In this document: piece after piece, positions 28,899 through 53,441 of the stretch
How positions within the stretch are numbered: the first letter of the stretch is position 1
How the letters are laid out: each line of letters opens with the position of its first letter
NCBI GenBank assembly: GCA_041650315.1
Contig: JBAZLJ010000002.1
Coordinates: 65,599-129,598 of the forward strand
Source of the DNA: Candidatus Woesearchaeota archaeon
GTDB lineage: Archaea > Nanobdellota > Nanobdellia > Woesearchaeales > JAGVYF01
Length of the DNA: 64,000 bases
Direction of reading: 5' to 3'
Notes under the pieces: model-generated
Database searches by the model: none
The model's input: the letters and a program-made list of their open reading frames with translations, nothing else
Told to the model about the DNA's origin: nothing
Made by a program: the position numbers and the translations under genes

Positions 28899-28913
28899 AA
28901 GCCTCAGGGGAGA
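28899..28913. repeat. 15-bp direct repeat aagcctcaggggaga, identical to the 3' end of tRNA-Thr at 53368-53382; putative distal att site
   Basis: Exact 15-mer match. A chance match of a specific 15-mer in 64 kb is very unlikely. Confidence 0.55.
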
Positions 28914-29058
28914 ACCTGGTTTCAGGTGCACTTCCCACGGCTTTGTAGTATTCTTATGCCACTTTAGATAATGTGCTAGTATTTATTATTTTCTGTCTGC
29001 GATTAAATATTATTAGTATGTAATATACAGATATACTAATTGGAGAGTTATAATAAAA

Positions 29059-29595
29059 TTATTCAGAATCTAAGCTCTCAGATAATTCAAAATCGTCTCT
29101 TATCTCCCCATATAATGGAAAATCAAAATTGCAACATAGTGCAGGTTTGTTCTTTTTTTGACAAGAAACAAAGTTTTGACAAATACCCTCATTTGCCTTT
29201 TTAAGGACGTATCTTATTCCTTTTTTATGCTTAATTATCTCTTTTTTAATTTTACCCCTACATATTAATTGAGTCACATATCCCCTAATCAAATCACCAT
29301 GCGTTAAATCTGTAATATCTAATTTTTCTATGATTTTTCTTATATTAAATGAAACATCTGCTAATTTTTCATCAATTACATTACTTACTTTGATAAATCC
29401 GCTTTTTTGCTCATTAGCTATAAAATTCTTATTTTTTACATATGATTCGGCATTACTTCTTTTACAGTATCTTTGTTCAGTTTTCACGTATTTTGCGGCA
29501 GGCTCACTTCGTGCTTCAGCGAGGGTAGTTGTTGATTGAATAGTATGTGGGCTTTTTTCAATCATTTCTTCTTCTGTTCTCCAGACTTTAACCAT
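29059..29595 (-). CDS. hypothetical Cys-rich protein, first gene inside the element
   Basis: ORF; C-terminal CQNFVSCQ...CCNF. Confidence 0.35.
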   Translation of the reverse strand: MVKVWRTEEEMIEKSPHTIQSTTTLAEARSEPAAKYVKTEQRYCKRSNAESYVKNKNFIANEQKSGFIKVSNVIDEKLADVSFNIRKIIEKLDITDLTHGDLIRGYVTQLICRGKIKKEIIKHKKGIRYVLKKANEGICQNFVSCQKKNKPALCCNFDFPLYGEIRDDFELSESLDSE

Positions 29596-29747
29596 TTTTA
29601 GATTAAAATTATCGTTAATATTTAAGCATTATTGTGGTTAGGATGTTTATCTTGCCGTAGCTTTGCCGTAGTTTCTGTTAAACCGATTCAAATAGTTCCC
29701 GTCTCAGTTCTGGTGTATCCGTAAAAACGATTCAAGGAGGATACGCC

Positions 29748-29912
29748 ATGATATGCATAATCTGCAACAAGAAAATCGAAGGCAAGGAAGACATCTGCCA
29801 GGAATGCGATAAACTGATGGATCTCTTCTACAGGAAACATCCAGAAGACAAACCGATGGCATTACAGATGTTCCGGGACGCAAAGGAGGATGAAGATGAA
29901 GGCTGGTATTAA
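29748..29912 (+). CDS. small zinc-ribbon protein (54 aa; CxxC...CxxC)
   Basis: aggagg ribosome-binding site 8 nt upstream. MICIICNKKIEGKEDICQECDK... Confidence 0.35.
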   Translation: MICIICNKKIEGKEDICQECDKLMDLFYRKHPEDKPMALQMFRDAKEDEDEGWY

Positions 29913-30153
29913 ATATTATCTGGCGTGGTTTTGCATTTACCTGCCGATAGCCATGAGCTACAAATATCTGGTCAGGGATGAGATAACCACACTGCTCGGC
30001 ATCATCGTGATAGCATTGGCAGTAATACCAGTATTCCTTGCAGTCTTCAAAGACAGACCTAGACTGGACTTGAACTATTCAAGACCCGGCGAATTCAATG
30101 TGCCAGCTCCAGTCATGAGGACAGCGATAAAAGTAATGGGGTGGGACAAATGA
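29890..30153 (+). CDS. small two-TM membrane protein
   Basis: ORF in tight overlap with its neighbours. Confidence 0.4.
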   Translation: MKMKAGIKYYLAWFCIYLPIAMSYKYLVRDEITTLLGIIVIALAVIPVFLAVFKDRPRLDLNYSRPGEFNVPAPVMRTAIKVMGWDK

Positions 30154-30485
30154 ACCTGAAAATATTATGGGACACGTTACTGCTCATGATGGTTGTCGGC
30201 ACAGTATTCATGCCCGCCGTCTCCGCAGTGACTTTCACAGGACCGACCGCAAGCGACATCAGCACCTTCAACGACATACTCTCGCCATTGATGAAATTGT
30301 ACAACTTCGTGAAATACGCAGCCACAGTCTTAGCTGTGCTGTATCTCGTATTCGCAGGCATATCTTTCATCATGGCGAGCAATGACCCGAGACAGAGAGA
30401 ATTAACCAAATCAATGGCGAGCTACGTCTTGGTAGGATTGGTAGTAGTCTGGGCTGCGCCGATGATGGTGGAGTATCTGCTGTGA
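30141..30485 (+). CDS. VirB2/TrbC/TedC-like conjugative pilin candidate
   Basis: Signal peptide ending AVSA, then two hydrophobic helices separated by a short charged loop (SNDPRQRELTKS). About 90-aa mature length. Confidence 0.45.
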   Translation: MGQMNLKILWDTLLLMMVVGTVFMPAVSAVTFTGPTASDISTFNDILSPLMKLYNFVKYAATVLAVLYLVFAGISFIMASNDPRQRELTKSMASYVLVGLVVVWAAPMMVEYLL

Positions 30486-31390
30486 GAAAACTTATTTTTC
30501 TCTTATTTTTTGTACTACTCATCATACCATCAGCTTATGCTTCAAGCAACAGCGATTGGTGGGATGTCGTGGACGAGTTCTATGACATCGCAGACTACTT
30601 CATCGAGAAGATTGTCGAGTTCATGTTCGCTTTGATACAAGGTGCGACAAGACCATTCCTATCATTGATTGAAACATTGCTAAAATCCGAAGTATCTATC
30701 ACCCCTTTTCAGAGCCTATGGCGTTCATTGGCGTACGTCGTCAGTATGTTCTACGGCTTGCTTTTCCTTTACGCAGGATTGCAGTTCATCACCTCCGGCA
30801 ATGATCCAGCGAAACGGACAGATGCAAAGACGTGGCTCAAGAATACATTTGTGATGATTGTCCTAGTCCAAGCTTCGTACTATCTTTACCAACTGACAAT
30901 GCAGATATCATCAGCTCTGACAACAGCGATACTGAAAAAGTGCTGGGTAAGCTTTTTCACGATAACCTATGACGTTTTCACTAATCTCAGCATGGAGTAT
31001 ATGTTCATCACGTTGTATATCATAATCCTGCTAGTTACAATCCTATTGTTGGCAATCCGTTACATCTTCGCATCAATCGGCGTAGTCTTTGCCCCGATAG
31101 GAATCTTTCTCAGCTTCATCCCACCATTGCAGAGCTATGGCAAATTGATAATCAACAGCCTAGGAATAATGGCGTTCATCCCATTCGTCGATGCAATCAT
31201 CATCCTCGCATCATCGCAGTTATTATTCACGCCAGTCTTTTCAAGCATGCAGATTCTGGTCAAGATAGTGGCGTTTTTGATAATCGATTTCTCCACAATC
31301 ATGCTCTTCAGATTGGCAGTCACCAAATCCGCATTCGATTCAGTCACAGGCGGAGTCACAAAAGTGATCAAATACGCATCATTGCTCTAA
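30482..31390 (+). CDS. VirB6/TrbL/CedA-like polytopic membrane protein
   Basis: 302 aa with at least 6 TM helices, translationally coupled to the pilin-like gene and the VirB4-like gene. Confidence 0.45.
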   Translation: MRKLIFLLFFVLLIIPSAYASSNSDWWDVVDEFYDIADYFIEKIVEFMFALIQGATRPFLSLIETLLKSEVSITPFQSLWRSLAYVVSMFYGLLFLYAGLQFITSGNDPAKRTDAKTWLKNTFVMIVLVQASYYLYQLTMQISSALTTAILKKCWVSFFTITYDVFTNLSMEYMFITLYIIILLVTILLLAIRYIFASIGVVFAPIGIFLSFIPPLQSYGKLIINSLGIMAFIPFVDAIIILASSQLLFTPVFSSMQILVKIVAFLIIDFSTIMLFRLAVTKSAFDSVTGGVTKVIKYASLL

Positions 31391-31391: not shown

Positions 31392-34300
31392 ATGTCCTAC
31401 GAAATCCCTGCGGAACTTGAATACAAAGAGATAATCATGTTCGGACTTACATTCATGCAGTTGCTCTACGCAATGGTTTTCCTAGTGCCTATTGCCATCA
31501 TCCTGAAATCCGGCATCGATTACACAATCCAGGCAGTCATCATCGCATTGCTCGTCGGAATCGCTCTCATGTTCATGTTCTTCAATCTCACAGAGAAGCT
31601 CAAGGAGATGTGGCAATACATGAAGCTGAAGACCAAGTACCAAAGATACCTAGAGACTGACCAGAAAGTCGCCGTCCTAAAGATAAAGCCGATTAATTTC
31701 ACGATAAAGACTGACGAGGAGAAGCAAGTCATCATCAAGACGTTCAGGAAATTCCTTAACTCGTTGAACTTTCCGATACAGATACTCATCAAGACAGAGC
31801 CGTTGCTATTGGACAATTATCTGAACCAACTGCATAAGAAATCCTTGAATAAGGAGCTGGTCGCTGGCATGAAGAAACATCTTAGCGAGACTCTGAGTGA
31901 TAAAGTCTTGAACAAGACGTTCTACATAATCATCCCAGAGAAAACCGGATTGGAGAAAAGGCAGTGCATCGAGAAGCTCAAAGACCTCAACCTCAAAGTC
32001 GATGAAGCCAAACTGCCTGCAGAGAAATATTACAAAATCGATATAACGTCGGCAGACTTCAAGATAAAGCAATACCATACGATAATAGCGGTCAGAGGCT
32101 ATCCGAGATTTGTCGAATCCGGATTCCTCGACAAAGTAGTAACTTCGCAGGGCTATTTCGATATAAGCATCCATATCGAGCCGGATTCGATTGAGCATAC
32201 CATGGTCACGCTCAATAAAGAGTTGCAGAAACAGAAAGCCGATCTCTATTCTGCCGAACTCAAAGGCGTAGTATCGCCATCTCTCGAAATCAAGTACAAA
32301 GACACAAAGAGCATCCTTGAGCAGTTGCATAAAGGCGAAGAAAAGCTGTTCAATGTTTCAGTCTATGTCGAATGCAGAGCATCGACCAGAGAAGAACTGA
32401 GAGACCTTGTGGCGAAAATCCAGTCCGAGCTTAATGCGTTAATGATGGATTCCAAGATTCCTACTTATCGGATGATTCAAGGCTTGAAATCAGTCTTGCC
32501 GTCAGGCATTGATGCGTTGAACATCAAGCGAAACATAACAAGCAACGCCCTTTCGGCATTCTTTCCTTTCACATCCCCATTCCTTGAAATAGATGATGAC
32601 GGCATCTGGCTCGGCTTGAATAAGAACAACATTCCGGTAATAAAAGATGTATTCAAGCAATTCAATCCCAATGGTTGTATCTTAGCATCATCCGGCTCAG
32701 GCAAATCATACACCGCTAAACTAATCATAAGCCGTTATATTTTGAACGGGACTAAAGTCATAGTCATAGACCCCCAATGCGAATATAAGCAACTCGTGAA
32801 GCATTTTAACGGGCAATGCGTTGAGATTAGCAGGACTTCTGAGACCGTGATTAATCCATTAGACCTAGTAGGACACGAATATCCAGACAAACGTCTGTCA
32901 TTGATGGGCTTGATTCCAGTCATGTTAGGCGAACTGACGGAATCGCAGAAATCATTGATGGACAAAGCCATAACCATGGCATACCAAAAGAAGGGCATCA
33001 GCATAGATGAAGCCACATGGAGCAATATGTGTCCCATGATGTCCGATGTGCTCGATGCCCTCAAAACAATGGAAAGAGGGGCAAATACCTTTGAGAAAGT
33101 CTCCATTAAGTCTCTGATGAACAGGGTAGAGATGTATGTCAATGGCGTATTCTGTTTCCTCAATAAGCAGACGAAGCTCGATTTCAACAACAATTTCGTA
33201 TGCTTCGATATATCCAAGATGCCTAAATTAGTGCAACCAGTGATGATGTATCTGATTCTGGACTATGTCTACATGAAGATGAAGGCGGACATAAACCGCA
33301 AACTGCTTGTCATCGATGAAGCATGGACGCTTCTAGGCAGAGCAGAGGATTCCAATTACATATTCGAGATAGTCAAGACTTGCAGGAAATTCAATATGGG
33401 GCTTCTCTTAATCAACCAAGAGGTTGAAGGATTATTGACCTCAAAAGCCGGAAAGTCTGTGCTTGCCAATACATCATACACATTCCTGATGAAACAGAAG
33501 CCTGCTGTCATCAAAGATATCCGAGACACGTTCAATCTCAGCCCTGCAGAAAAAGACTATCTCCTGACTGCTTCCATCGGCGAAGGGCTGTTGATAATCG
33601 GCGATGAGCATACTGAGCTTAAAGTGGTCGCATCTGCTGAAGAGCATAAGCTGATTACAACCAATGCGGATGAACTATTGAAGCTCGAAGCAAATGCTAT
33701 GAACCCTGCTTTCAGGAAGGACGTGGAGATCAAGCTGGACTTGTCCAGCGATGTCTACCGGAAAGCGGATTTGAGCGAGGATGATGTGAAGTATTTGGTT
33801 AGGAACGGATATGCTGAAGAGCAATGCAGAGCGATAGAGGCGAAAAGACAGGAAGCATATCTCGTGAAGAAAAAGAGATGCGAAAGTATGCCCCACGTTT
33901 TCTTAGTTTGGGAGATTGCGAATTATCTAAAAAAGTATACTTCTGAAATCAAAACTACATCAACATCTGTGGCAGATATTATTGTCCAAACGCCAAAGGG
34001 CGAATTCGCTATTGAGATTGAAACGGGCTATTTCTTGAAACACAACAAAGCAGAATTATTTGATAAAGTAAAGGCATTGAATGAAAAGTTCGGCTCAAAT
34101 TGGTGCTTTGTTGTGACTGACAATGATATAAGAAAACAATATAGGCGATTAGGGAGAACATATACACGGATGGATTTATCGAGATTAGTGCAAGAAATTC
34201 CCCTCTCACCCCCTCAAATTCTGGCGTTTAAAGCTTTATCCCCCTCAAACTCTGCGAATTCGCCCGCAGGACTTACCATTCATACAACCAACACGGAGGT

Positions 34301-34484
34301 ATCTAAAATGAACGACCAACAACCTAAGAACGATAAAAACGAACCGACTAAAGAATACAACGATCAACCGATTCTCGAAACGCGAATTAGCTTGAGCAAG
34401 GATGGGAAATATGTCATACACAAGACAATCATCACAGACATAAAACCGATTGCATATATGCAAAAAGTACTGGGCTCAGAATGA
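31392..34484 (+). CDS. VirB4/TrbE/CedB-like conjugation ATPase with N-terminal TM anchor and C-terminal extension
   Basis: Walker A ASSGSGKSYTAK and Walker B LLVIDEAWTLL. 1030 aa. Confidence 0.7.
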   Translation: MSYEIPAELEYKEIIMFGLTFMQLLYAMVFLVPIAIILKSGIDYTIQAVIIALLVGIALMFMFFNLTEKLKEMWQYMKLKTKYQRYLETDQKVAVLKIKPINFTIKTDEEKQVIIKTFRKFLNSLNFPIQILIKTEPLLLDNYLNQLHKKSLNKELVAGMKKHLSETLSDKVLNKTFYIIIPEKTGLEKRQCIEKLKDLNLKVDEAKLPAEKYYKIDITSADFKIKQYHTIIAVRGYPRFVESGFLDKVVTSQGYFDISIHIEPDSIEHTMVTLNKELQKQKADLYSAELKGVVSPSLEIKYKDTKSILEQLHKGEEKLFNVSVYVECRASTREELRDLVAKIQSELNALMMDSKIPTYRMIQGLKSVLPSGIDALNIKRNITSNALSAFFPFTSPFLEIDDDGIWLGLNKNNIPVIKDVFKQFNPNGCILASSGSGKSYTAKLIISRYILNGTKVIVIDPQCEYKQLVKHFNGQCVEISRTSETVINPLDLVGHEYPDKRLSLMGLIPVMLGELTESQKSLMDKAITMAYQKKGISIDEATWSNMCPMMSDVLDALKTMERGANTFEKVSIKSLMNRVEMYVNGVFCFLNKQTKLDFNNNFVCFDISKMPKLVQPVMMYLILDYVYMKMKADINRKLLVIDEAWTLLGRAEDSNYIFEIVKTCRKFNMGLLLINQEVEGLLTSKAGKSVLANTSYTFLMKQKPAVIKDIRDTFNLSPAEKDYLLTASIGEGLLIIGDEHTELKVVASAEEHKLITTNADELLKLEANAMNPAFRKDVEIKLDLSSDVYRKADLSEDDVKYLVRNGYAEEQCRAIEAKRQEAYLVKKKRCESMPHVFLVWEIANYLKKYTSEIKTTSTSVADIIVQTPKGEFAIEIETGYFLKHNKAELFDKVKALNEKFGSNWCFVVTDNDIRKQYRRLGRTYTRMDLSRLVQEIPLSPPQILAFKALSPSNSANSPAGLTIHTTNTEVSKMNDQQPKNDKNEPTKEYNDQPILETRISLSKDGKYVIHKTIITDIKPIAYMQKVLGSE

Positions 34485-34543: not shown

Positions 34544-35716
34544 TTGAAAAAAAGAATTCAAATTTCGGAAATAATGCCGATATTATCTAAAGCGATTAAT
34601 CAAAATAAATTAAGTCCTAATGTCCCTCATTATTATACCAGAATATTTACTTATTTTGATGAAATTGAAATTCCTGAAACATCATTTATGCAGACATTAA
34701 AATCCATATCATCCATCCTTAACGAAATAGATCAACACCACTTTAAAAGTCCAGAAGACTATTTTTTGTATATTATTAGTATTTGTGAACATATTACTTC
34801 AAAGATTTTTCAAAAAAGTATTAATCAAAAGGAGATATATGAAAAATATTCCACTCAATTTAATCAAATCGTAGATTTAATTAAAGAAATATATTCAAAA
34901 TTTGAAGATTCTTTTGCACAATCTCGAACAAATGAATATAATTCTTTCAAGGGGAATAATACTTCTTCCAAAATTGAATTAGAATTTGATTTAACTAGTG
35001 AACTGGACATTAAAAAAGCAATAATCAAAGAATTTGTTCTCCCCTACAAATATGAGATTAAAAAAGATAAAGTAATTAATAGGGGATATGTCCCGATAAT
35101 TTATCAAGGAAAAATAATTTATCAAAGTGAATCCAAATCATTTAGAGGGCACATAATTGAAAATGAAATCACCCCTATGGGATATCCCTTTTATGGAATA
35201 GACATAATTCATCCTAAAAATGAAAATGAGTTTATAGAATTTGTCAATGAATTAATTGCCATATTTAAACATAATATTGAACAGAGAAAGGGATATAAAC
35301 TATTATGGAATGGAACAAAAAGTAAGCCTGAAGAAGAAGTACAAATCTTTTTTGATAATCAAATTATAGAATTAGCCCAAAGAAGAGGCATTGAAGTCTC
35401 TCGAGAAAATGAAACGGGGCGCGGTCCAGTTGATTTTAAGTTTATTGAATCAGTAGAACATAAAGCACATCTTGAAATCAAAAAGGCGTCTAATCCTAAA
35501 TTAATAAAAGGGTTATCTAAACAATTAGTTACTTATTTAAAAGCGGATAAATTAGATATAGGTTTTTATCTAATAATTCAATTTTTTGACAATGAGGATA
35601 AAATTATCAATACGTTTAAACAACAAATTTCAAAATTAAGATTAGATAATAATATAAAGATATTTACTATATTTATTGATGCAAGAAGAAATAAAAAATC
35701 TGCATCAAAATTGTAA
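34544..35716 (+). CDS. hypothetical protein with candidate C-terminal PD-(D/E)xK nuclease motif
   Basis: Very AT-rich. ...ENETGRGPVDFKFIESVEHKAHLEIKKAS gives a D...ExK arrangement. Confidence 0.4.
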   Translation: MKKRIQISEIMPILSKAINQNKLSPNVPHYYTRIFTYFDEIEIPETSFMQTLKSISSILNEIDQHHFKSPEDYFLYIISICEHITSKIFQKSINQKEIYEKYSTQFNQIVDLIKEIYSKFEDSFAQSRTNEYNSFKGNNTSSKIELEFDLTSELDIKKAIIKEFVLPYKYEIKKDKVINRGYVPIIYQGKIIYQSESKSFRGHIIENEITPMGYPFYGIDIIHPKNENEFIEFVNELIAIFKHNIEQRKGYKLLWNGTKSKPEEEVQIFFDNQIIELAQRRGIEVSRENETGRGPVDFKFIESVEHKAHLEIKKASNPKLIKGLSKQLVTYLKADKLDIGFYLIIQFFDNEDKIINTFKQQISKLRLDNNIKIFTIFIDARRNKKSASKL

Positions 35717-35717
35717 A

Positions 35718-36707
35718 ATGGCTGAAAAAATAGTTAATCCCGAAACCAAAGAAATAATTATCAAGTGCAGTAGTGATTTAGAATTAAATAGCTATTCTAA
35801 TTTTTACGATGCATTTGGAGATTTAACTATTACTGAAATAGTTAATAATTTTAATATAGTTAGATATAGTTTATTTGAAAGATATTATTTGTCCGATAAA
35901 AGCTTTAAAGAAACAATTAAAGTGATGAAACAAAATATCCTAAAGCTTCAATCGCAATGGGATACTTTTACACCATTAAAACCTAGAATAATTGATATCG
36001 AAGATTTTAATGCGGGATTTAAATTTACTATTATTAAAAATATTAAAAAGAAAATTAAGGATAAATTAGATAATCTAGAGATATCAAGAAAAGGTACGGA
36101 TTTTGCATGTGTTGTTTATATCTATAAAAAAGAAAATAATAAAGTGGGGATTTTATTTTCGAATTATAATTATAGTAATTCTAAATTACTTGATTATCTC
36201 TCTAAAGAATTGGTTGAAAGGCTTATTTTCGAAAATCTTAGGCCTGAGAAATATAAATTAATTGAATTGGTAGATCGTTTAAATAAAGTAATTGGAATTA
36301 AATTTGACCCTGGGTACTTAGTCCCAAAAAAGATTAAAGATAAATTACAAGAACAAGATAAAATTAGATTAATCTCTAATTCTATAAAATTAGAGAAACA
36401 AGAAATTAGATTATTAGATTTAAAATCATTTGAAGAGTTTAATATTCTTATCTCTGATATTAAGAATAAAAAACGTGATATAGAGCAATTAGAGGGGTAT
36501 TTAGATTTAATTCGAATTAAAATTGAATCTTTGGATAAAGGCACTAAAACAGTAATTACGGTTTGGTCAAATAAATTAAATGTTGAAAGTAAAGGGGAAT
36601 TTGTTTATTTAATGGGTTTTTTAAAACAATTATTTTTAAAACAGAAATCAAATCATAAAAAAGAGATTATACAAAAAACAATTAAATCTAGTCTTATCGC
36701 TCATTAA
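35718..36707 (+). CDS. hypothetical Lys/Asn-rich protein, apparently co-operonic with the preceding gene
   Basis: ORF. Start placed at the ATG two nt after the upstream stop. Confidence 0.35.
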   Translation: MAEKIVNPETKEIIIKCSSDLELNSYSNFYDAFGDLTITEIVNNFNIVRYSLFERYYLSDKSFKETIKVMKQNILKLQSQWDTFTPLKPRIIDIEDFNAGFKFTIIKNIKKKIKDKLDNLEISRKGTDFACVVYIYKKENNKVGILFSNYNYSNSKLLDYLSKELVERLIFENLRPEKYKLIELVDRLNKVIGIKFDPGYLVPKKIKDKLQEQDKIRLISNSIKLEKQEIRLLDLKSFEEFNILISDIKNKKRDIEQLEGYLDLIRIKIESLDKGTKTVITVWSNKLNVESKGEFVYLMGFLKQLFLKQKSNHKKEIIQKTIKSSLIAH

Positions 36708-36932: not shown

Positions 36933-37034
36933 ATGATAGAAAAAGACCATTTTTGCGAATATGAAATAGCTGGAGAACTGATTCTCTGCGGAATATGCGG
37001 TGCAGAGCACCACATTAAGGGTGATGTCCAATGA
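36933..37034 (+). CDS. 33-aa zinc-finger-like peptide (C..C....C..C..HH), translationally coupled to ardA
   Basis: ggaggt ribosome-binding site. Its stop overlaps the ardA ATG (ATGA). Confidence 0.3.
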   Translation: MIEKDHFCEYEIAGELILCGICGAEHHIKGDVQ

Positions 37035-38007: not shown

Positions 38008-38015
38008 TATTTCAC

Positions 38016-44885: not shown

Positions 44886-45314
44886 TTAAAACTCATCCTT
44901 TAATCTTTTAATCAGTTCCGCCCAATCCTTATACTCCACAACCTCATCCGCAGCAGCCTTCAGGAATGCGGATTCTTTGCCTGATTCGCACATAGCGACA
45001 ACACGAAGCCCTAATGCCTTGGCATAGCCCATCTCGAAATAGACACCATTGGCTTTCTCAGTGATATCCGCTAAAATCATATCGCAATCTTTAAGTCCCG
45101 CAGTAGCTCCTTCAATCACTTCAGGAAGCGAAGTCTGGACTGCGCCCCACTTCTGCACATCCCTAAAGAAGATGAATGTAGAGTGTCCAGCAGATTCTAA
45201 AGCATCGCTAAGCTCAGTCAATTTCTTCTTCAATATTGTAGTATCCGCATCCTTAAACTTGTACGCTATGTAGATTTTCATTCTTTTGACCTCCATAAAA
45301 TCGTTTATATGCAT
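44886..45314 (-). CDS. nucleoside 2-deoxyribosyltransferase-like (SLOG-fold) protein
   Basis: MKIYIAYKF... and GVYFEMGYAKALGLRVV resemble the NDT active-site region (catalytic Glu in F-E-x-G-Y-A). Confidence 0.45.
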   Translation of the reverse strand: MHINDFMEVKRMKIYIAYKFKDADTTILKKKLTELSDALESAGHSTFIFFRDVQKWGAVQTSLPEVIEGATAGLKDCDMILADITEKANGVYFEMGYAKALGLRVVAMCESGKESAFLKAAADEVVEYKDWAELIKRLKDEF

Positions 45315-46578: not shown

Positions 46579-46580
46579 TT

Positions 46581-47720
46581 CTAGACCCCCATATTCTTTA
46601 AGTCTATCACGATATTGTCTACCAACCTCTTTGGTTTTCTATCACCCGCTATCAGTTTTTGATTTCTTAGATAATTCAGATAAGTGGAGACTGTGCTTAG
46701 ATTCAAGCCAGTCTTCTGTGCGATATTCAAGCTAGTATTCTCGCCATCGCAATTCTGTAGAATTTTGAGCTTCAAGGTGTTCAATGGCTTGATGTGCTGC
46801 TCAAACCTCTCTGCGCCCCCTATGAACATAGTTTTAGTCTTATCCTTGACATTCTCTTCCTGCACGTATTTGTTGATTACAGCGAAATAACGCATGAAAT
46901 TGTCAGTTATGACTGGGAACAAATTAGTCGAGTTTACTTTATCCAATAATTGATCTTTGGTAAATATTTCTTCGTTATAAGAAAATTTGTCGTTCAGAGC
47001 AGTATCAAGCACATCAAGCAAATGCTCGATTTCCAGCTTCGATGGTTTCTTCTCGCTATAATGCCCTTCGATAATCTTCAAGATATGCGTTCTAGACATT
47101 TCCATTGATGGAATCAAGCCAGTAGTCGGATGGATTATTACGGGGATCTTGGTAACATAGATGACTTTTGGCGGAGTGAATTTCACATAGCTTTGCTCTA
47201 GGACTTCTGAGATTATATTATAGAATACTTTGAATCTTTCAGATGTCAGATAATGCGTAGGCGGAGCACTGCATAATTCAGGGAATAGTTCAGGCATAGC
47301 CATAGCAATGAGATAATCTGCGATGATGTAACTCAGTTTTGAGATAGAAATCTTGTCAAATGGAATATAATCCAGTTCAAAGCCTTTCTTGAGATCCCCA
47401 ATAGTTATTCGGGACAATATTTTCTGGAATACCGCCGAATATTCAGAATTCCTGAATAGCCTGTCCCACGCCTCAGAGAAAGTAAATGTGTTATAGTCCA
47501 TCTTGAGATGAGACATCAATTTCTTCAGAACATCTACATTCTCATCCAGCTTCTGCGGTTTATTCTTTACTCCATGGAAAAGCTCGTTTTCATATACATA
47601 ATTGTCCCAGACGCAAAGATAGACCTTATTGGCTCTAGCTTCATTCTTCAAATAATAGACATGATTCAGATTAGTGTAAGCTTTGGTTACTGGACTGATG
47701 TTAGTATAGACGATGTTCAT
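46581..47720 (-). CDS. hypothetical protein with C-terminal winged-helix DNA-binding domain
   Basis: C-terminal LSTVSTYLNYLRNQKLI helix-turn-helix. N-terminal 300 aa unknown. Confidence 0.4.
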   Translation of the reverse strand: MNIVYTNISPVTKAYTNLNHVYYLKNEARANKVYLCVWDNYVYENELFHGVKNKPQKLDENVDVLKKLMSHLKMDYNTFTFSEAWDRLFRNSEYSAVFQKILSRITIGDLKKGFELDYIPFDKISISKLSYIIADYLIAMAMPELFPELCSAPPTHYLTSERFKVFYNIISEVLEQSYVKFTPPKVIYVTKIPVIIHPTTGLIPSMEMSRTHILKIIEGHYSEKKPSKLEIEHLLDVLDTALNDKFSYNEEIFTKDQLLDKVNSTNLFPVITDNFMRYFAVINKYVQEENVKDKTKTMFIGGAERFEQHIKPLNTLKLKILQNCDGENTSLNIAQKTGLNLSTVSTYLNYLRNQKLIAGDRKPKRLVDNIVIDLKNMGV

Positions 47721-48340
47721 TTCAGCAAGTCCTCCAGATGCTCCGGCTGAACGTGCTTTGTATCCATGCCCGCCAAAGCAGCACCAGATAAATCTCTATC
47801 AAAATCATGCGAAACATAGACAGACTTCTCGGGCTTTACATTAGCTCTTCTTAATGCTTCAAGATAGATTGCTGGATGCGGTTTCCTGTATCCTACTTCG
47901 TAGGACATCGTGATAGTCTGGAATAAATCCTGGAGGTTATATTGTTTTAACTTCGGCATTATAGAATCGTGCGGGCAATCTGAAATTATATGCAAAGGAT
48001 ATTTTCCTGCAAGAGCTCTTAATACTTGTTCAGTTTGCGGAAATATCTCGTAATCATGGTCATTCAAGCGATAGATATCAGTCAATGCGTCTGTCAGCTT
48101 ATCATCTAAGCCATACGCTTGCTTCACTATTCTTGGCAAAGGCCATTCTATGCTATGCTTTCTATCTTTCACATAAAGCTTGATTGCTTGCGTCCATTGA
48201 TCTCGTAGTTGCTCGTTAGTATAGCTTAAACCTTCTTGTCGTAAATATTGCTGAGCCATAGCATGAGCTCTATCAGAAGTCTGTTGATTGAATGTTATAT
48301 CGAATAGCAATCCCCCAAAATCGAAAAACCAATCTGCCAT
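47717..48340 (-). CDS. HAD-superfamily hydrolase (phosphatase-like)
   Basis: Motif I FDFGGLLFD, a Lys motif (KPHP) and motif IV YVSHDFDRD. Confidence 0.55.
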   Translation of the reverse strand: MADWFFDFGGLLFDITFNQQTSDRAHAMAQQYLRQEGLSYTNEQLRDQWTQAIKLYVKDRKHSIEWPLPRIVKQAYGLDDKLTDALTDIYRLNDHDYEIFPQTEQVLRALAGKYPLHIISDCPHDSIMPKLKQYNLQDLFQTITMSYEVGYRKPHPAIYLEALRRANVKPEKSVYVSHDFDRDLSGAALAGMDTKHVQPEHLEDLLK

Positions 48341-48458
48341 TATACTGCCTGAAATTCCGTGAGGGTTTATAAAGATTTTGATGAATTCGTGAACAATGCT
48401 TTAATATAATCGTGAAGTAGTTTTGATAACGTGAGGTGGTAGCCGAAGAGGTTAACAT

Positions 48459-48494
48459 TATTTATAAATGCACTGACCCACCGGGGTCCGTGCA
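48459..48494. promoter_or_regulatory. perfect 10-bp inverted repeat ataaatgcac-N16-gtgcatttat with a GC-rich centre, upstream of the HAD/radical-SAM operon
   Basis: Seen directly; candidate operator or hairpin. Confidence 0.35.
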
Positions 48495-48525
48495 TTTATA
48501 TAGAATTATAGTAAAGGTTATCACT

Positions 48526-48732
48526 ATGTTAGATTATACCGGATTGGGTTGGAAAGTAAAATTAAGACAGAAACGAGCGAGTTATTTCTGTACATTGGCT
48601 AAAGAGATTATTGTGGGCAATACCCTGAAGCAAGGCGATGAGCTTTACTATTATCTTGTGAATGTTGAGGGAAGGAAGGGGGTACTGGTGTACTTGGATG
48701 GGAAAGAGAGAATCAATCTTAATAGTAAATAA
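48526..48732 (+). CDS. small AbrB/MazE-like (swapped-hairpin) protein candidate
   Basis: LAKEIIVGNTLKQGDELYYYLVNVEGRKGVLVYL resembles the AbrB/SpoVT pattern. Confidence 0.3.
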   Translation: MLDYTGLGWKVKLRQKRASYFCTLAKEIIVGNTLKQGDELYYYLVNVEGRKGVLVYLDGKERINLNSK

Positions 48733-48783
48733 CCATTCTTCAGAAAACAAATATTTATTAATGTAGAGTTTATCATATTTCGT

Positions 48784-49653
48784 ATGGGTTTATTGAATCG
48801 TCTTTTTGGGTCAACAGAATCTATTGCGAAAGAAATCGAAGCAGATGATGCAGTTATTAAAAAGCAATGGGATGATTATCTTAAAACAATACCCAAAAAG
48901 AAAATTATCATAGGAAAACTTAATCCTGACGCTAAACTAAATTCTAATCTTAAAGAATTAGCCTCATTATTGGCATTAGAATTGACAGATATTCGCAGTG
49001 AAGAAAAGGAAGAATCGGAACTGATAGCGGATTTGGAATCGTTAGAGCAATCTAAGAAAATAAAACGCGTAGACAAATTAGAGCAGACTTTATGCTATAT
49101 GGAGACTAGGCACGAATATATCCACAAATTGTTGGAGCAACTCGATTCTATACTGAAATCCGAAATGAATTTAGTGATAGTATTGCAGAAAGGCTCTAAG
49201 GATATAGAAAAACTGATCTCTTCATTGAAATCTCAATTAAGCCTCGAATTGAATATTCTGGATAAGATTGAGAAAAGATCTACTTTCCATGAAATGTTCT
49301 CTGCGCTTGTCAAAGGCGAGCATATAATCAAATTCATGGATTCACGAGAAAAACGTATGCTCAGCAAGATGCAGAAAGGATTAGGCAAGATATATGGCGG
49401 TGAAATCGATAAGGGAGTGACATTTGAATGGGCGATGGGCGTTTTTGAATCGGTTGAAGATTCGGTACGTGAAGCGATAGCTAACGGCCTATTAGAAATG
49501 CATCCTGATGTAGATTTCGAATTCGTAAATACTTCTCAATTTCTCGTATTGGTTAAAGGTAAAATCCAGAGCCTAAGAAAAAGACCAGTTTCAGACCAGA
49601 TGATAACTGTCTTTGTTCATCTATTTAGGGAATGGTACAACGAAAGAGAATGA
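48784..49653 (+). CDS. hypothetical protein
   Basis: ORF. Confidence 0.35.
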   Translation: MGLLNRLFGSTESIAKEIEADDAVIKKQWDDYLKTIPKKKIIIGKLNPDAKLNSNLKELASLLALELTDIRSEEKEESELIADLESLEQSKKIKRVDKLEQTLCYMETRHEYIHKLLEQLDSILKSEMNLVIVLQKGSKDIEKLISSLKSQLSLELNILDKIEKRSTFHEMFSALVKGEHIIKFMDSREKRMLSKMQKGLGKIYGGEIDKGVTFEWAMGVFESVEDSVREAIANGLLEMHPDVDFEFVNTSQFLVLVKGKIQSLRKRPVSDQMITVFVHLFREWYNERE

Positions 49654-49766
49654 TTAAAATCCCTTTCTATGTTTAAGTTAAGCGTCTATTTCTAAAATAT
49701 ATAGCAGAAATTGCCCTAATATCAATTGATTACTCTTCGGATTGGATATTAGATAGTGTTTGTTAT

Positions 49767-50342
49767 TTAGATTAAGGGGAACATATTGCTATTTGCAGTC
49801 AAACTATTGATGATGCCCAATAATTGCCCGATATAGACTATGATTCCAATCAAGCATACGTAAAGAACTACACCTAAGAATGATCTTAGATAAGAAATCT
49901 TATACTTTTTAGAAAAACCATATACATATACAAGGATAGTCAATATAGCAATAACATATCCCGGGAAAATCAAACTTGGAATTATCAATACTATCATTGA
50001 ATAAGCCAATGCCTGCATTGCACTAAGGTAATTGTCTTTCTTAGCGATTAATCTCATTATAAGATTGATTATGAACGCCTCAATCTCTAGCATGACTCCA
50101 ACCACGATTTTAGCCAATAAGACTATCACCAAAATGGCGATTAAGTCTAAATAGGATGGATTGATTAACAAACCATAAATTCCGTTCAATAAAAGACTAG
50201 CACGAAATACTAAAGTAAGCATATCAATCAATTGCTCAGAAGAGCCCCTATCTTTCTCAAATACGACTAATGGAGATTTAAGGAATTTTACTATCCTGAG
50301 AAAAGATTCTTTTTCAGTGCCGAAACCAATCCATGACTGCAT
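49767..50342 (-). CDS. hypothetical membrane protein
   Basis: ORF with 4-5 TM helices. Confidence 0.35.
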   Translation of the reverse strand: MQSWIGFGTEKESFLRIVKFLKSPLVVFEKDRGSSEQLIDMLTLVFRASLLLNGIYGLLINPSYLDLIAILVIVLLAKIVVGVMLEIEAFIINLIMRLIAKKDNYLSAMQALAYSMIVLIIPSLIFPGYVIAILTILVYVYGFSKKYKISYLRSFLGVVLYVCLIGIIVYIGQLLGIINSLTANSNMFPLI

Positions 50343-50439
50343 AGTTACTTTTAAGGTTTTTAAGCTATTTAAATATTACTAAAATCAGTTTTATTCCCAT
50401 TTGGGTTTAATACTCCGTAGCTTGCTGTGGCAGGGAGTT

Positions 50440-51354
50440 TCATTTTTTAGTTATAATGTTCAGACAAATAGTTTTCATATTGTATGCTTCGCTTTTTATC
50501 TCATTGCAAAGATCTGCGTTTCTGGTCTCGATTGCATACCATTGGATGCACAAATCCTGCTGAGTCTCCAGTGCTTCCATATAGCATGAAATATCGCACG
50601 TGACTTTCCGGCATTCTGTCCAGTCTTTAGTCACTTTGGCTTTGCAGAATCCTTTTGATTTAGGCATACCTGTATTGTCGCATACCAAAGCATCTTTTGC
50701 AATAATAGCATACTCCGTGAAGCATTCATCCGAATTAGTGGCATTGAATAGTTTGAACACTAAATCGCAAACATCACTGTTTTTCAGTTCAATGCCTACA
50801 CTTGCCACGCATCTGGCGAGCTTGCCATCACGAGACCAGCCATCTACGTCAACAATTGGTTCAACCATTAAAGCGTTACACTTATCAGTGATTTTCTTCT
50901 CGAACTCCGCTTGCCTTGCCCAAAGGTTGAATACTGATAGATTCGTTTTAGCGACAATTATTCCATTGCCGTCTTTAATTGTCAGAAGCTCAATGATATA
51001 TTCGCTTGGTCTAAGATTATGATAATATCTATTCGGTTCTATCCAATCTTTATCTTTTGCGATGAATGTTACATAAACTGGCATTGCTATATTTCCATTC
51101 TCGTCAATAATCCTGAATCCATATTCTGTTCCTTCAGGAAGCCCTTTCTGCTGAAAGAAAAACCCTTGGTCCATATCAATGGAAGTCGCTATATTTCTAT
51201 CATTGTCTAGAATGAATACTTTGACATAGGGGGATATATTTTCTGAAACGTTCAGTTCTAGTCCGGGTGGAGTCGCACGAGGGAGGAATCCGTTAAGGAA
51301 GAATATGGTGATTATTGCGAGAATGATTAATAGGAAAATATATCTCAGTTTCAT
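50440..51354 (-). CDS. secreted Cys-rich protein (possible surface/adhesion protein of the element)
   Basis: Signal-like N-terminus MKLRYIFLLIILAIITIFFL (start moved to this Met); many Cys in the C-terminal half. Confidence 0.35.
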   Translation of the reverse strand: MKLRYIFLLIILAIITIFFLNGFLPRATPPGLELNVSENISPYVKVFILDNDRNIATSIDMDQGFFFQQKGLPEGTEYGFRIIDENGNIAMPVYVTFIAKDKDWIEPNRYYHNLRPSEYIIELLTIKDGNGIIVAKTNLSVFNLWARQAEFEKKITDKCNALMVEPIVDVDGWSRDGKLARCVASVGIELKNSDVCDLVFKLFNATNSDECFTEYAIIAKDALVCDNTGMPKSKGFCKAKVTKDWTECRKVTCDISCYMEALETQQDLCIQWYAIETRNADLCNEIKSEAYNMKTICLNIITKK

Positions 51355-51471
51355 ATATGAAACGTGGATAATCGTCTTTAAAAAAGCTTGTTTTTTACAT
51401 TCATGCACCCCCATAAAGCCCCCCACAAAGCCCCGTCCTATGTTTAAGTCAAGCGTCTATTTCTATAATTC

Positions 51472-51654
51472 ATGAAGAAGCGTTATGAACTGCGACTGAC
51501 CGAATCACAGGATATTCAGTTAAGGCAGAGAGCAGAAGCATTAGGATTTTCTAAGAAAATCGATTATGTCCGTTTTATGGCATTCCTAGAACCATCTTTC
51601 ATAGAAAAGATTGACCAGATCCATAAGAAGCTGTGTGGTGAAGATGCTAGATAA
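51472..51654 (+). CDS. ribbon-helix-helix (CopG/Arc-like) protein 1
   Basis: KKRYELRLTESQDIQLRQRAEALGFSKKIDYVRFMAF. Confidence 0.4.
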   Translation: MKKRYELRLTESQDIQLRQRAEALGFSKKIDYVRFMAFLEPSFIEKIDQIHKKLCGEDAR

Positions 51655-51802
51655 GGTTCGGCTTAGGACAAGATCAAGGAGCATCAGCATTTCGCTAGAC
51701 CTTTTAGATAAAATAAGATTTGTCTGTAAAGGCAATATGTCAGTTTCAGCATTCATAAGGATGGCAATAAAGAAAGAACTGCTAAGAAGAGGGATTGCAT
51801 GA
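51611..51802 (+). CDS. ribbon-helix-helix (CopG-like) protein 2
   Basis: SISISLDLLDKI...SAFIRMAIKKEL. Confidence 0.5.
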   Translation: MTRSIRSCVVKMLDKVRLRTRSRSISISLDLLDKIRFVCKGNMSVSAFIRMAIKKELLRRGIA

Positions 51803-51984
51803 GGCGACATTATTTTTTTAAGCTGAGGATGACTCTATCTGAAAAAGAAGAATTATGCGAAATAGCTAAAGACAATGGATTTGATACAGTTAGTTCTTAT
51901 TTAAGATGGGCAATTATGAATAATCTTCCTAAAGATATCCAAGAGATAAAAAATATTCTGCAAAAAAGAGAAGAAAAAAACTAA
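51799..51984 (+). CDS. ribbon-helix-helix (CopG-like) protein 3
   Basis: MTLSEKEELCEIAKDNGFDTVSSYLRWAI. Confidence 0.45.
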   Translation: MRRHYFFKLRMTLSEKEELCEIAKDNGFDTVSSYLRWAIMNNLPKDIQEIKNILQKREEKN

Positions 51985-53228
51985 CCGATAACCTTAGCGG
52001 TAGTTGTATTCATTTCCTGCATCTTCTGCGCAAGAAGCTGGATAATCTCTGGATGATGGCTAATCCTATCCAATAAGTCATCAGTTTCGTTCAGCCTTTT
52101 GCTATCTTCATTATACTTTGCCTGTATTGCCATGGCTTCGTGAATATCCAATATACCCGCACATCTGCAACAATACTTGCTTTCATAGCTGTTTATTGTC
52201 TCGCAACGTGGACAGGTCTTAGACCTTAGATGCACCTCTTCAGTTTTCTTATCCATGCTTTTGATGCCATTCATTACTAAAATAGCACTCTCTACCTCTT
52301 TCCCAGACATATGCACATAAGTCGAAGGCATCTCTGAACCCTGCGCCCAACCAAAGTATTGGTTCATCTGGAATTCAGTAAGATGATTGGCAAGATAAGT
52401 GGCACGACTATGCCTGAACATATGCGGATTGCATCTTTTAGTGATTCCAGATTTAGCGCAGTGCACACGCAATAGCTTATTTATCGCCCTATAGCTGATT
52501 GGAACAGATTTCTGGCGATTGCTCATGGTGACCCATAATGATTCAGTCCTATCATCTCTCTGAGGATGTATGTTCAGCCAAGTCATAAGATATTGAGTAG
52601 ATGAAACTAATCTTAATTTACGAGCACCAGTCTTGCCTTGAACGGTTATCAATATGCCATATTTATCTATTTCGACATTATTGATCTGCAATGAACAAAG
52701 TTCGCCTACCCTGCATCCAGATTCCCATAGCATAGACACGAATGCCTTATCTCTTGGAGAATTTATTGATTTGAGCAATTTCTCAATATCTTTTTCGTTC
52801 AGAAGTTCTCCGGATGAGGGCAGTTTCTTATCGCATAGCCTAAGTTTCGCCTTAATCCATTTTACTTCAGGCGGGAATTCATCACCACTATTCTTCAACC
52901 ATTTGAAGAATCTCTTGATTGCCATCTTATATGATTTCTTGGACCAAATTCCGTAATTTGGGTCCATCTGAATTTGGCTGACAATTGGTGCAATATCTTC
53001 CTTAGTTACTATATCAAAGTCCTTATTTAGCCACAATGCCCAAAATCTAAGGGTATCTGTATATTTAGCCACCCTAGACAAAGAAATTCCTTCTGCCACC
53101 AAACTATCCACAAATCTTCGGATTATCTCCTGATTGTGTGCACTCACGCTCGAATCCTTTAATCTCCTTAATGCCCATTGTGCTTGCCTTGCGTAGTTAT
53201 GGATATCTGTTTTCATGTTAGTCTCCAT
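51981..53228 (-). CDS. int: tyrosine recombinase / integrase (XerC/D-like, intact)
   Basis: C-terminal catalytic region with R...HMFRHSRATYL...Y. Lies adjacent to the tRNA att site. Confidence 0.8.
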   Translation of the reverse strand: METNMKTDIHNYARQAQWALRRLKDSSVSAHNQEIIRRFVDSLVAEGISLSRVAKYTDTLRFWALWLNKDFDIVTKEDIAPIVSQIQMDPNYGIWSKKSYKMAIKRFFKWLKNSGDEFPPEVKWIKAKLRLCDKKLPSSGELLNEKDIEKLLKSINSPRDKAFVSMLWESGCRVGELCSLQINNVEIDKYGILITVQGKTGARKLRLVSSTQYLMTWLNIHPQRDDRTESLWVTMSNRQKSVPISYRAINKLLRVHCAKSGITKRCNPHMFRHSRATYLANHLTEFQMNQYFGWAQGSEMPSTYVHMSGKEVESAILVMNGIKSMDKKTEEVHLRSKTCPRCETINSYESKYCCRCAGILDIHEAMAIQAKYNEDSKRLNETDDLLDRISHHPEIIQLLAQKMQEMNTTTAKVIG

Positions 53229-53368
53229 AAGAATAAGCTACGTTAAATACTTGAGGACCACATTGTGGCCACAACCCGTGGGTTGCACTTCAAGTAAGAA
53301 GCCTCTAGAGAGATTCCTGCTTCAAATACATCTCCCCAGAAAAGCGGGGAAATGAACTTCAAGTAAGA

Positions 53369-53441
53369 AGCCTCAGGGGAGATTTGCACTCCCGACCTCG
53401 GCCTTACCAAGGCCGCGCAATAGCTGCTATGCTACAGAGGC
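53369..53441 (-). tRNA. tRNA-Thr (anticodon GGU)
   Basis: Minus strand. Acceptor GCCTCTG/CTGAGGC with one T-T mismatch, anticodon stem CGGCC/GGCCG with loop TTGGTAA, T-arm GGGAG-TGCAAAT-CTCCC, discriminator T. Weak 3-bp D-stem, so moderate confidence. Confidence 0.55.

Follow-up and report, generated by a model that had tools for sequence, protein, structure and literature searches.

Integrative elements that carry genes of a type IV secretion system (T4SS), reside in a tRNA gene and lack a relaxase are a known kind of archaeal element: they have been described in Thaumarchaeota (Nitrososphaeria) and, as conjugative plasmids, in Sulfolobales and Thermococcus (PMC6563490, PMC12857230). Integration of these elements into tRNA genes is carried out by a tyrosine integrase, and VirB4 is encoded together with VirB6/VirB3-type proteins and a variable cargo. 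Typically they carry a pair of VirB4 and VirD4/TraG, and those of Thaumarchaeota also TFIIB and ParB. No relaxase has been found in any archaeal conjugative element described so far (PMC6563490, PMC12857230), and how the DNA is processed without this enzyme is an acknowledged open question (PMC6563490, PMC9905601, PMC12857230). Here we analysed a stretch of 64,000 nucleotides from a Candidatus Woesearchaeota archaeon (assembly GCA_041650315.1, contig JBAZLJ010000002.1, positions 65,599 to 129,598). In the following the whole stretch is called the window, and coordinates refer to it unless another locus is named. The segment 28899–53382 is probably a mobile element integrated in the genome of a Woesearchaeota-type DPANN archaeon. 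It is of the known kind outlined above and differs from the known archaeal elements in five respects: the DPANN host, the lack of matches to VirD4, TFIIB and ParB (a partition protein was not matched in the element either), a VirB2-type pilin, an affinity of the transfer genes to those of monoderm (single-membrane) bacteria, and a VirB4 protein that is fused to PrgI and to a nuclease-fold domain.

The element spans 24.5 kb and is bracketed by the exact 15-bp direct repeat AAGCCTCAGGGGAGA. This 15-mer is present exactly twice in the window, both times on the plus strand, at 28899–28913 (attL, the left boundary of the element) and at 53368–53382 (attR), whereas two or more matches were obtained in none of 100 dinucleotide shuffles. 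ARAGORN detected a tRNA-Thr(GGU) (anticodon given as GGT) on the minus strand at 53369–53441, and the Rfam covariance model RF00005 scored it with 57.3 bits against a gathering score of 29. Therefore the right repeat coincides with the 3' end of this tRNA: it takes in the final T-loop base, the 3' strands of both the T-stem and the acceptor stem, and the discriminator, plus one base more. According to a rough arithmetic estimate, a direct repeat of at least 15 bp of any part of a tRNA arises by chance within 64 kb with a probability of about 0.004. The repeat, its location in a minus-strand tRNA-Thr and an adjoining intact tyrosine integrase had already been proposed in a first-pass annotation of the window, which had named the fold of the tRNA beforehand as a point on which its reading could fail. 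All of this was borne out.

The integrase gene is located at 51981–53228 on the minus strand and starts 140 bp from the attR repeat and the end of the tRNA. It codes for an intact protein of 415 amino acids (aa) with a Cys4 motif at the C-terminus, which matches Phage_integrase with E = 9e-22 and 78 bits (cut-off 27) and the NCBIfam model XerA_Arch with 114 bits, which is below the cut-off of that model. A recombinase and flanking att repeats at a defined target, both hallmarks of an integrative conjugative element (ICE), are present here, and it follows from this anatomy that a tyrosine recombinase integrated the element into the 3' end of tRNA-Thr(GGU) with duplication of the 15-bp core. A longer core, or a pseudo-tRNA at attL, was considered as well and rejected. 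A MAFFT alignment suggested that the similarity continues beyond the repeat inside the element at attL, but 323 of 2000 shuffles scored at least as high, so this is not significant and the att core is 15 bp. The empty site attB would accordingly consist of AAAAATTGTGAA, the core AAGCCTCAGGGGAGA and TTTGCACTCCCGACC, and the junction attP of the circular form of ACTTCAAGTAAG, the same core and ACCTGGTTTCAGGTG.

A degenerate second copy of the attR junction was found by repeat search and alignment at 53284–53315 (plus strand), 69 bp inside attR, with 88% identity over 32 nt. It could be an arm-type site of the integrase or the scar of an earlier event. The acceptor stem of the tRNA-Thr shows a U6–U67 mismatch. 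Position 67 lies within the 15-bp core, and an intron-containing tRNA-Thr of a related Woesearchaeote (locus L050, 3847–3954) has the canonical 6–67 pair; therefore the 3' end supplied by the element may have altered the tRNA-Thr.

Two or three small genes resembling ribbon–helix–helix (RHH) genes converge on the integrase gene (51472–51984, plus strand). Three CopG-like RHH genes had been proposed at this place; the open reading frames (ORFs) exist, but the RHH family is matched only below the Pfam cut-offs for two of them (RHH_1, E = 0.0099; NikA-like, E = 2.8e-4) and not at all for the first one, and only two of the ORFs were called by the gene caller. Homologues of the third gene are found near the integrase or pilin gene in two related loci (L084 and L087). 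The RHH-like proteins are possible regulators or excision cofactors.

The genes of the transfer module follow one another at the left side of the element on the plus strand. The pilin gene (30150–30485) encodes a VirB2-like protein which matches Pfam T4SS_pilin (PF18895; VirB2/TrbC-like) with E = 1.1e-12 and 48.3 bits, above the gathering threshold of 26.6 bits, whereas the match to TrbC is weak. With NCBIfam a weak resemblance to a pilin-like protein of Mollicutes ICEs was seen. The family alignment reveals a signal peptide ending with AxA, after which come two hydrophobic helices, and a basic loop, i.e., the design of VirB2 and TedC.

The adjacent gene (30482–31390) codes for a protein of 302 aa in the position of VirB6, with a signal peptide, about six hydrophobic segments (counted by eye) and a pilin-like hairpin. 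This hairpin, residues 82–132, is homologous to the two-helix core of the pilin (hhalign probability 97.5%, E = 7e-12), and the same relationship of a pilin segment has been reported for CedA–CedA1 and for VirB6–VirB2 (PMC9905601). A weak match to TrbL_3 is on record for the protein. When 34 members of its family were searched with Pfam, the pilin-like segment was the only match and was obtained for 15 of them. As the protein has the pilin hairpin but no VirB6 match in sequence, we refer to it as the VirB6-position protein, a putative VirB6 that is VirB6-like by design. The VirB6-like polytopic protein proposed in the first-pass annotation is supported by gene position, by-eye topology and the pilin-like hairpin. 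An attempt to recognise the pilin and the VirB6-position protein as solved T4SS, Ced or Ted proteins was given up: single-sequence and profile searches of PDB returned spurious matches to two-helix membrane proteins (RNase kappa) or none.

The third gene (31392–34484) encodes a fusion protein of 1030 aa, which consists of a PrgI/VirB3-like N-terminus (residues 4–97), a VirB4 ATPase up to about residue 756, a PD-(D/E)xK-fold domain (about 785–935) and a small tail. Residues 401–756 match the solved C-terminal domain of VirB4 (PDB 4AG5, E = 1e-32), and Pfam matches to the TraG P-loop, DUF87 and AAA_10 were obtained. The best NCBIfam models are conju_CD1110 (304 bits, cut-off 325) and VirB4_plasma of Mollicutes ICEs (262 bits). 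Lower scores were obtained with the models for F-type TraC and for VirB4/CagE, and the CedD model gave 45 bits with a cut-off of 600. Among the matches listed, the nearest plasmid-borne relatives come from Firmicutes and Actinobacteria and share 23–32% identity. Both the VirB2-like pilin and the VirB4-like ATPase had been anticipated in the first-pass annotation, and with them a mating-pair-formation T4SS with a VirB4 ATPase, a further hallmark of an ICE, is present.

The N-terminal residues 4–97 are homologous to PrgI of the C. botulinum plasmid pCDC3875 (hhalign probability 92%, E = 6e-7; the Pfam PrgI match is weak), and many relatives, including the related locus L132, have this segment as a separate ORF of 110–125 aa. 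A PrgI/VirB3-like protein upstream of VirB4, as in CD1110-type systems, is thus encoded, here as a fusion. The last 40 or so residues (about 990–1030; 34365–34484) form a beta-hairpin that is a separate small ORF after VirB4 in many relatives, and therefore the 1030-aa protein fuses four modules.

The part of VirB4 following the ATPase comprises about 275 residues, the first 180 or so of which are conserved at 30–40% identity in all 120 best homologues. The nuclease-like domain proper, assigned by fold and motif, extends from residue 781 to 940 (33732–34211). In an alignment of 47 sequences E831, H835, D862, E875, E877, G879, K892, W904 and Y917 are invariant, and the consensus of the domain reads ...NESxxHxFL...KPDIVFE...AIEVETG...K. 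Pfam and PDB sequence searches with the C-terminal domain gave no match, and there is no Pfam family for it, so the PD-(D/E)xK assignment is one at the level of fold and motif. AlphaFold2 modelled the domain with a predicted local distance difference test score (pLDDT) of 91.6 and with an alpha-beta-beta-beta-alpha-beta core (pLDDT of the full-length VirB4 model, 77.7). The structural neighbours of the model are overwhelmingly PD-(D/E)xK nucleases, with Foldseek probabilities of 0.95–0.97 to EndoMS/NucS, Cdn1 and Can2. From these predictions the C-terminus of VirB4 appears to be a PD-(D/E)xK-fold, nuclease-like domain.

In the matches listed, the alignments with plasmid-borne bacterial VirB4 proteins all end by about residue 780, and 80% coverage of the query is reached by none of the 5000 records with the best scores. 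With a profile of the domain, 725 representative clusters were retrieved at E <= 1e-3 from 1.84 billion proteins, and the members sampled were C-terminal fragments of VirB4, stand-alone proteins, membrane-anchored proteins and one Zn-ribbon fusion. Outside VirB4 (P0121, P0123, P0129, P0130, P0136, P0124, P0127) the domain was seen alone (about 170 aa), preceded by membrane helices at the N-terminus with a Lys-rich linker, and preceded by a Zn-ribbon. Three further proteins (P0125, P0126, P0145) have an integrase-like N-terminus joined to a C-terminal fragment of VirB4 with the nuclease-fold domain. These chimeras are probably deletion remnants of elements of the same family.

Judged by sequence, the transfer machinery appears closest to the T4SSs of monoderm bacteria and not to Ced/Ted. 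The best matches of VirB4 are the monoderm systems of the CD1110/CD1112/CD1115 type (MPF_FA/FATA; pCDC3875) and the Mollicutes ICEs. The gene order VirB6–PrgI–VirB4 is common to the element and pCDC3875, and the VirB4 of the window has the PrgI-like segment at its N-terminus. In contrast to the CD1110-type systems, the element has no VirD4, relaxase, VirB1-type hydrolase or VirB8-like gene; moreover PrgI is fused to VirB4, the nuclease-fold domain is added, and the VirB6-position protein is unrelated in sequence to CD1112.

The first-pass annotation had compared the gene set with the Ced machinery of Sulfolobales and the Ted machinery of Thermoproteales. This resemblance holds for the parts list, since Ced and Ted follow the same three-part logic of a VirB2-like pilin, a VirB6-like channel and a VirB4-like ATPase and have no relaxase either (PMC9905601). 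TedC has a cleavable pilin signal peptide like the pilin of the window, the resemblance being one of design only, and CedA/CedA1 show a pilin-homologous segment in the channel protein as does the VirB6-position protein. In sequence the set does not belong to the Ced family: the nearest relatives are monoderm VirB4 and PrgI proteins, and the CedD score is far below its cut-off as given above. When PDB was searched with profiles of the pilin and of the VirB6-like protein, neither conjugative pilins nor VirB6 chains were matched. Pfam scans detected none of the Ted-associated ParA, Rad50 and HerA genes in the element. Ced and Ted are chromosomal, domesticated importers, whereas the set in the window is situated on an integrase-bounded element together with the antirestriction gene ardA.

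The T4SS of Patescibacteria (candidate phyla radiation, CPR) is a further system worth comparing. Its carriers are ultra-small symbionts too, and it comprises an MPF_FATA-related VirB4, PrgI/VirB3, VirB6 and VirB2-like pilins of the Pfam families PF18895/PF04956, like the VirB2-like pilin of the window, while a relaxase is usually absent (PMC12102498). However, the CPR genes are described as a conserved locus of the chromosome that often lies close to the origin of replication and is required for epibiotic growth, and no VirB3–VirB4 fusion was found there (PMC12102498), whereas the two proteins are fused in the element. The three genes for pilin, VirB6-position protein and VirB4, called the trio below, are in DPANN located in islands rich in recombinases and restriction–modification genes, unlike the CPR locus.

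This last statement derives from a comparison of related loci. A protein search with VirB4 yielded more than 3000 relatives among 8000 candidates scored, and those with a named source belong to Woesearchaeota, Pacearchaeota or Nanoarchaeota. The comparison set contained 82 related metagenomic loci, namely the two closest elements and 80 loci from a metagenome scan with the VirB4 alignment. The pilin, VirB6-like and VirB4 genes are syntenic in 62–69 of the 82 loci (69 for the VirB6-position protein), and we explain most of the exceptions by truncation of the loci at contig ends. In the two closest elements, L083 and L084, VirB4 is 86–87% identical, and the same block of small ORF, pilin, VirB6-like and VirB4 genes lies beside an integrase of 58–62% identity. 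Both elements reside in other genomic contexts, and their flanks and cargo differ from those of the element in the window. L083 carries giant RHS/YD-repeat toxin genes next to the trio; the cargo of L084 includes ArdA, RmuC, a Dnd-associated protein with a radical-SAM enzyme, and an SNF2 helicase.

The integrase of the family (37–62% identical) was found upstream of the trio in nine loci; six of these loci have a tRNA gene immediately at the start of the integrase, and the tRNA is not always the same (Pro, Asn, Asp, Ser, Arg, Asp). Compared with what tRNA gene density would roughly lead one to expect, tRNA genes near the trio are not by themselves enriched. What is informative is solely that tRNA and integrase directly adjoin. 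One distant relative, L132 (VirB4 53% identical), repeats the whole layout of repeat, T4SS genes, cargo, integrase-domain protein and tRNA. Here a 13-nt repeat at 4890–4902 and 18066–18078 brackets the pilin, VirB6-like, VirB3 and VirB4 genes together with cargo. Its right-hand copy forms the 3' end of a tRNA-Glu on the minus strand, and a protein of 1018 aa that contains a Phage_integrase domain adjoins this tRNA. Taken alone this repeat is statistically weak, about one chance match being expected over all tRNAs tested, and it gains weight only because of the integrase-domain gene beside the tRNA-Glu. No other related locus showed direct repeats of at least 13 nt from a tRNA end bracketing the T4SS module, probably because the elements exceed the 10-kb flanks.

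The neighbourhoods of the trio were surveyed by means of 104 ORFs from 13 loci with long flanks. The commonest Pfam families are DNA methylases, subunits of type I, III and IIG restriction–modification systems, tyrosine (five) and serine (three) recombinases, SNF2/ResIII helicases and Fic, and none of the top 25 families is a housekeeping family. The contig Ga0208977_1000003 (964,825 bp), nearly the size of a genome, contains two trios, L144 and L153, about 22 kb apart. No relative of the VirB4 family was detected among 2.9 million viral contigs of IMG/VR. The synteny, the variety of integrases and tRNAs, the cargo, the paired trios and the chimeras point to a family of islands that are mobile and modular, and not to an apparatus conserved on the chromosome.

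Two of the related loci show peculiarities of their own. In L132 an ORF with an RVT_1 reverse-transcriptase domain (6813–8105, minus strand) is inserted between the pilin and VirB6-like genes and could be a group II intron or a retron-type insertion. In L083 (4522–4834 and 7945–8019) a perfect 81-bp tandem duplication, beginning with a tRNA-5'-like sequence, and a truncated copy of tRNA-Pro(ggg) lie between tRNA-Pro(cgg) and the integrase, and an intact tRNA-Pro(ggg) lies between the integrase and the T4SS genes. Repeated integration may have left such scars behind; alternatively, the element may bring along a tRNA of its own.

All ORFs that the first-pass annotation had listed are present in the window, and its suggestion of defence and anti-defence cargo agrees with the Pfam and PADLOC matches to ArdA and to restriction–modification and defence genes. 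The ardA gene (37031–37534, plus strand) matches Pfam ArdA with E = 8e-27 and 95.2 bits (cut-off 27), covering profile positions 3–147 of 155. The established role of ArdA is to shield the DNA of mobile elements on entry into a restricting recipient. ArdA is followed by a defence operon on the minus strand (37531–44808; Pfam and PADLOC), which comprises a PLD(HKD)-SNF2 helicase (41611–44808; PADLOC HKD+Snf2, E = 1.5e-42), a type IIG Eco57I/MmeI-like methylase (38662–41610; PADLOC REase_MTase_IIG, E = 3e-44) and two ORFs of 220 and 158 aa. The 220-aa ORF (38016–38678) has a weakly RecX_N-like N-terminus and, by eye, a PD...ExK-like motif (GPDVIM...LEVTGK), so it may be a nuclease partner of the methylase.

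Next to this operon a cassette on the minus strand (44886–48340; Pfam, PADLOC PDC-M51A) encodes a nucleoside 2-deoxyribosyltransferase-like protein, a B12-binding radical-SAM protein, a 379-aa winged-helix protein and an HAD hydrolase. Its first three genes (44886–47720) recur in L144 (20232–22904), 7 kb downstream of a distant VirB4. These genes may form a module of cargo common to both loci, with a role perhaps in defence or in the modification of DNA or nucleotides. Further cargo at 48436–51426 consists of ORFs of 98 and 289 aa (plus strand), a Yip1-like membrane protein and a 328-aa Cys-rich membrane or secreted protein (both minus strand). Directly downstream of VirB4 two AT-rich ORFs of 390 and 343 aa (34544–36707, plus strand) gave no match in Pfam, NCBIfam or PADLOC scans; a precomputed match of the 390-aa ORF (called as a 380-aa product) to DUF8371 (PF28130) is the only record for the two.

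Three ORFs precede the pilin gene. The leftmost codes for 178 aa with a Cys-rich C-terminus (29059–29595, minus strand) and is called as a gene on a contig of the Logan assemblies; it has no Pfam or NCBIfam match and no homologue in the 82 related loci. A 54-aa Zn-ribbon ORF with a CxxC...CxxC pattern (29748–29912, plus strand) was seen in the translation; its match to DZR_2 is weak (E = 5e-4), and the gene caller did not report it. A small membrane protein is encoded immediately before the pilin gene (29953–30153, plus strand; 66 aa as called, 87 aa if started at 29890), with homologues at the same position in L083 and L084. In our estimation the remainder of the element is likely to be exchangeable cargo, mostly genes for defence and DNA modification.

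The archaeal host assumed in the first-pass annotation is corroborated by the flanks. FtsZ encoded there finds 80 loci at 78–85% identity in genomes (one per GTDB species) nearly all of which bear the label Woesearchaeota, Nanoarchaeota or Nanoarchaeia. The flanks also encode a diphthamide synthase fusion, and intron-bearing tRNAs are present. The host thus belongs to the DPANN archaea and is of the Woesearchaeota type. The G+C content is a mosaic of 43–45% in the T4SS module, 25–31% in most of the cargo and about 38–42% in the flanks.

Some further observations concern the flanks. Directly upstream of the tRNA-Thr lies a tRNA-Leu(UAA) (53449–53606, minus strand) with two introns, one of about 34 nt after the 5' acceptor strand GTGGGGA and one of 40 nt at position 37/38. 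It was missed by ARAGORN and Rfam, and ARAGORN calls tRNA-Leu(taa) once the introns are removed in silico. The 3' end of a stand-alone LAGLIDADG_3 gene (53580–54191, minus strand, E = 1.7e-13) overlaps the 5' end of this tRNA, and two Logan contigs of the same sample also break at this overlap. Just left of attL a 45-nt direct repeat (28449–28493 and 28570–28614, 89% identical) duplicates the 3' end of a 91-aa ORF. Far to the left, a membrane-protein ORF of 554 aa (2395–4100, 25% GC) begins inside a tRNA-Phe (2395–2470) and is followed by FlaJ/TadC-like and FlaI-like type IV pilus genes; this could be a second small tRNA-associated island.

For the element itself we infer excision, transfer and mobility, including self-transfer. 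As the anatomy shows, the integrase recombined the 15-bp core with the 3' end of tRNA-Thr, whereby the tRNA was rebuilt at attR and the duplicate core was left at attL. In the mechanism that we propose, the integrase, perhaps together with the RHH proteins, would excise the element as a circle, and a minimal T4SS of the monoderm type, consisting of the pilin, the VirB6-position protein as channel protein and the PrgI/VirB3–VirB4 motor, would move the DNA into another cell. In the recipient ArdA would shield the incoming DNA from restriction, and the integrase would then insert it into the tRNA-Thr. The most speculative step is that the PD-(D/E)xK-fold domain fused to VirB4 might cut or process the DNA at the entrance of the channel, in place of a relaxase and a coupling protein.

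We consider self-transfer the likeliest function of the module, although not by a wide measure of certainty: ArdA lies inside the element, the identities of integrase and VirB4 run in step, and the neighbourhoods of the trio are rich in recombinases and restriction–modification genes. Several findings weigh against it. In agreement with the first-pass annotation, to which no relaxase was evident, Pfam and NCBIfam scans of the element matched no relaxase or Rep family, the sole relaxase-related signal being the weak NikA-like RHH match (E = 2.8e-4); the same scans recognised neither VirD4 or a coupling protein, a single T4SS-type ATPase being encoded, nor a replication initiator. The VirB6-position protein has no similarity to the VirB6/TrbL protein CD1112 of pCDC3875 (hhalign probability 0.2%), no NCBIfam match and no detectable similarity to any solved chain in PDB. 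An empty tRNA-Thr site was not found in the FtsZ neighbourhoods of 80 related GTDB genomes, which show no shared synteny and no tRNA-Thr next to FtsZ; these genomes are too diverged, and not even the diphthamide synthase gene adjoins FtsZ in them. A degenerate pattern of attL, attR, attB and attP gave no match in metagenome and viral collections, and look-ups of the exact proteins (FtsZ, the 91-aa neighbour, the integrase and an Fe-S protein of the right flank) returned only two Logan contigs of the same sample (SRR8542065), which break inside the tRNA-Leu and not at an att site. In the family, ArdA is encoded in only one of the 82 loci, and 73 of the 82 have no integrase within 10 kb of the trio. 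Finally, the T4SS-like systems of other ultra-small symbionts have been proposed to serve host interaction and not conjugation (PMC12102498, PMC10266531). Part of these findings would fit an island that is real but carries the trio as a cell-to-cell symbiosis apparatus, for import of DNA or nucleotides or for effector delivery, and spreads this apparatus by other means. The rarity of integrase and ArdA and the lack of relaxase and VirD4 matches would be expected then, as would the giant RHS/YD-repeat toxin genes next to the trio of L083. The Patescibacteria T4SS is essential for epibiotic growth and mostly has no relaxase (PMC12102498, PMC12857230), giant VirB4-domain proteins of Nanohaloarchaeota have been proposed as effector channels (PMC10266531), Ced and Ted import DNA (PMC9905601), and a nuclease associated with the channel would also suit the processing of imported DNA. 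Yet the trio is located within an att-bounded element together with ArdA, one 965-kb contig has two copies of it, and its neighbourhoods are rich in recombinases and restriction–modification genes instead of conserved chromosomal genes. Moreover, the identity of the integrase falls in step with that of VirB4 (62, 58, 46 and 37% versus 87, 86, 50 and 52% for L084, L083, L087 and L110, respectively). We therefore regard the symbiosis apparatus as a possible but clearly less probable function than self-transfer.

The locus might also be a relic, i.e., a former integrative element which is now a fixed island kept for its defence cargo and whose T4SS genes are non-functional leftovers. No evidence of excision was found, the base composition of the element is a mosaic, a degenerate att copy is present at 53284–53315, and decay products exist in the family in the form of the integrase–VirB4 chimeras (P0125, P0126, P0145). 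But the att cores are identical over 15 bp, the ORFs of integrase, pilin, VirB6-like protein, 1030-aa VirB4 and ArdA are all of full length, and VirB4 retains every residue that is invariant in the family, which makes a relic improbable. It is more improbable still, to the point that we give it hardly any weight, that the repeat is coincidental or that the region is a provirus and not an element of the conjugative type. Admittedly, 15 bp is a short core and the repeat is not extended beyond it; against coincidence stand the shuffles, none of which contained two copies, the position of the repeat at the 3' end of a tRNA next to an integrase, and the recurrence of the architecture in L132. The provirus reading was dropped, as neither capsid nor portal nor terminase families were matched in Pfam scans and relatives of the VirB4 family are absent from the IMG/VR contigs.

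What is new here is the family of loci with a syntenic trio, the integrases at varied tRNAs, the relative L132 in a tRNA-Glu and the nuclease-fold domain on VirB4. Neither T4SS islands of DPANN nor a VirB4–nuclease fusion is described in the full-text literature searched, the coverage of which is incomplete, so that an earlier description may exist elsewhere.

As to its meaning, the nuclease-fold domain fused to VirB4 is a concrete and biochemically testable candidate for DNA processing without a relaxase. The findings also indicate that T4SS islands with an integrase and with restriction–modification and defence genes are carried by DPANN archaea, whose genomes measure about 1 Mb, which bears on gene flow and immunity in these organisms, whereas the literature searched discusses the VirB4-type systems of ultra-small symbionts only as devices for host interaction. 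The closeness to the T4SSs of monoderm bacteria and Patescibacteria raises the question of an exchange of conjugation modules between the domains. Our most far-reaching proposal, a tentative one that we ourselves hold to be doubtful, is that DPANN archaea host a large family of self-transmissible elements in which a PD-(D/E)xK domain in the VirB4 motor replaces relaxase and coupling protein and conjugation is independent of a relaxase. If such a self-transmissible family exists, its elements could, in addition, carry DNA from symbiont to host cell or in the opposite direction.

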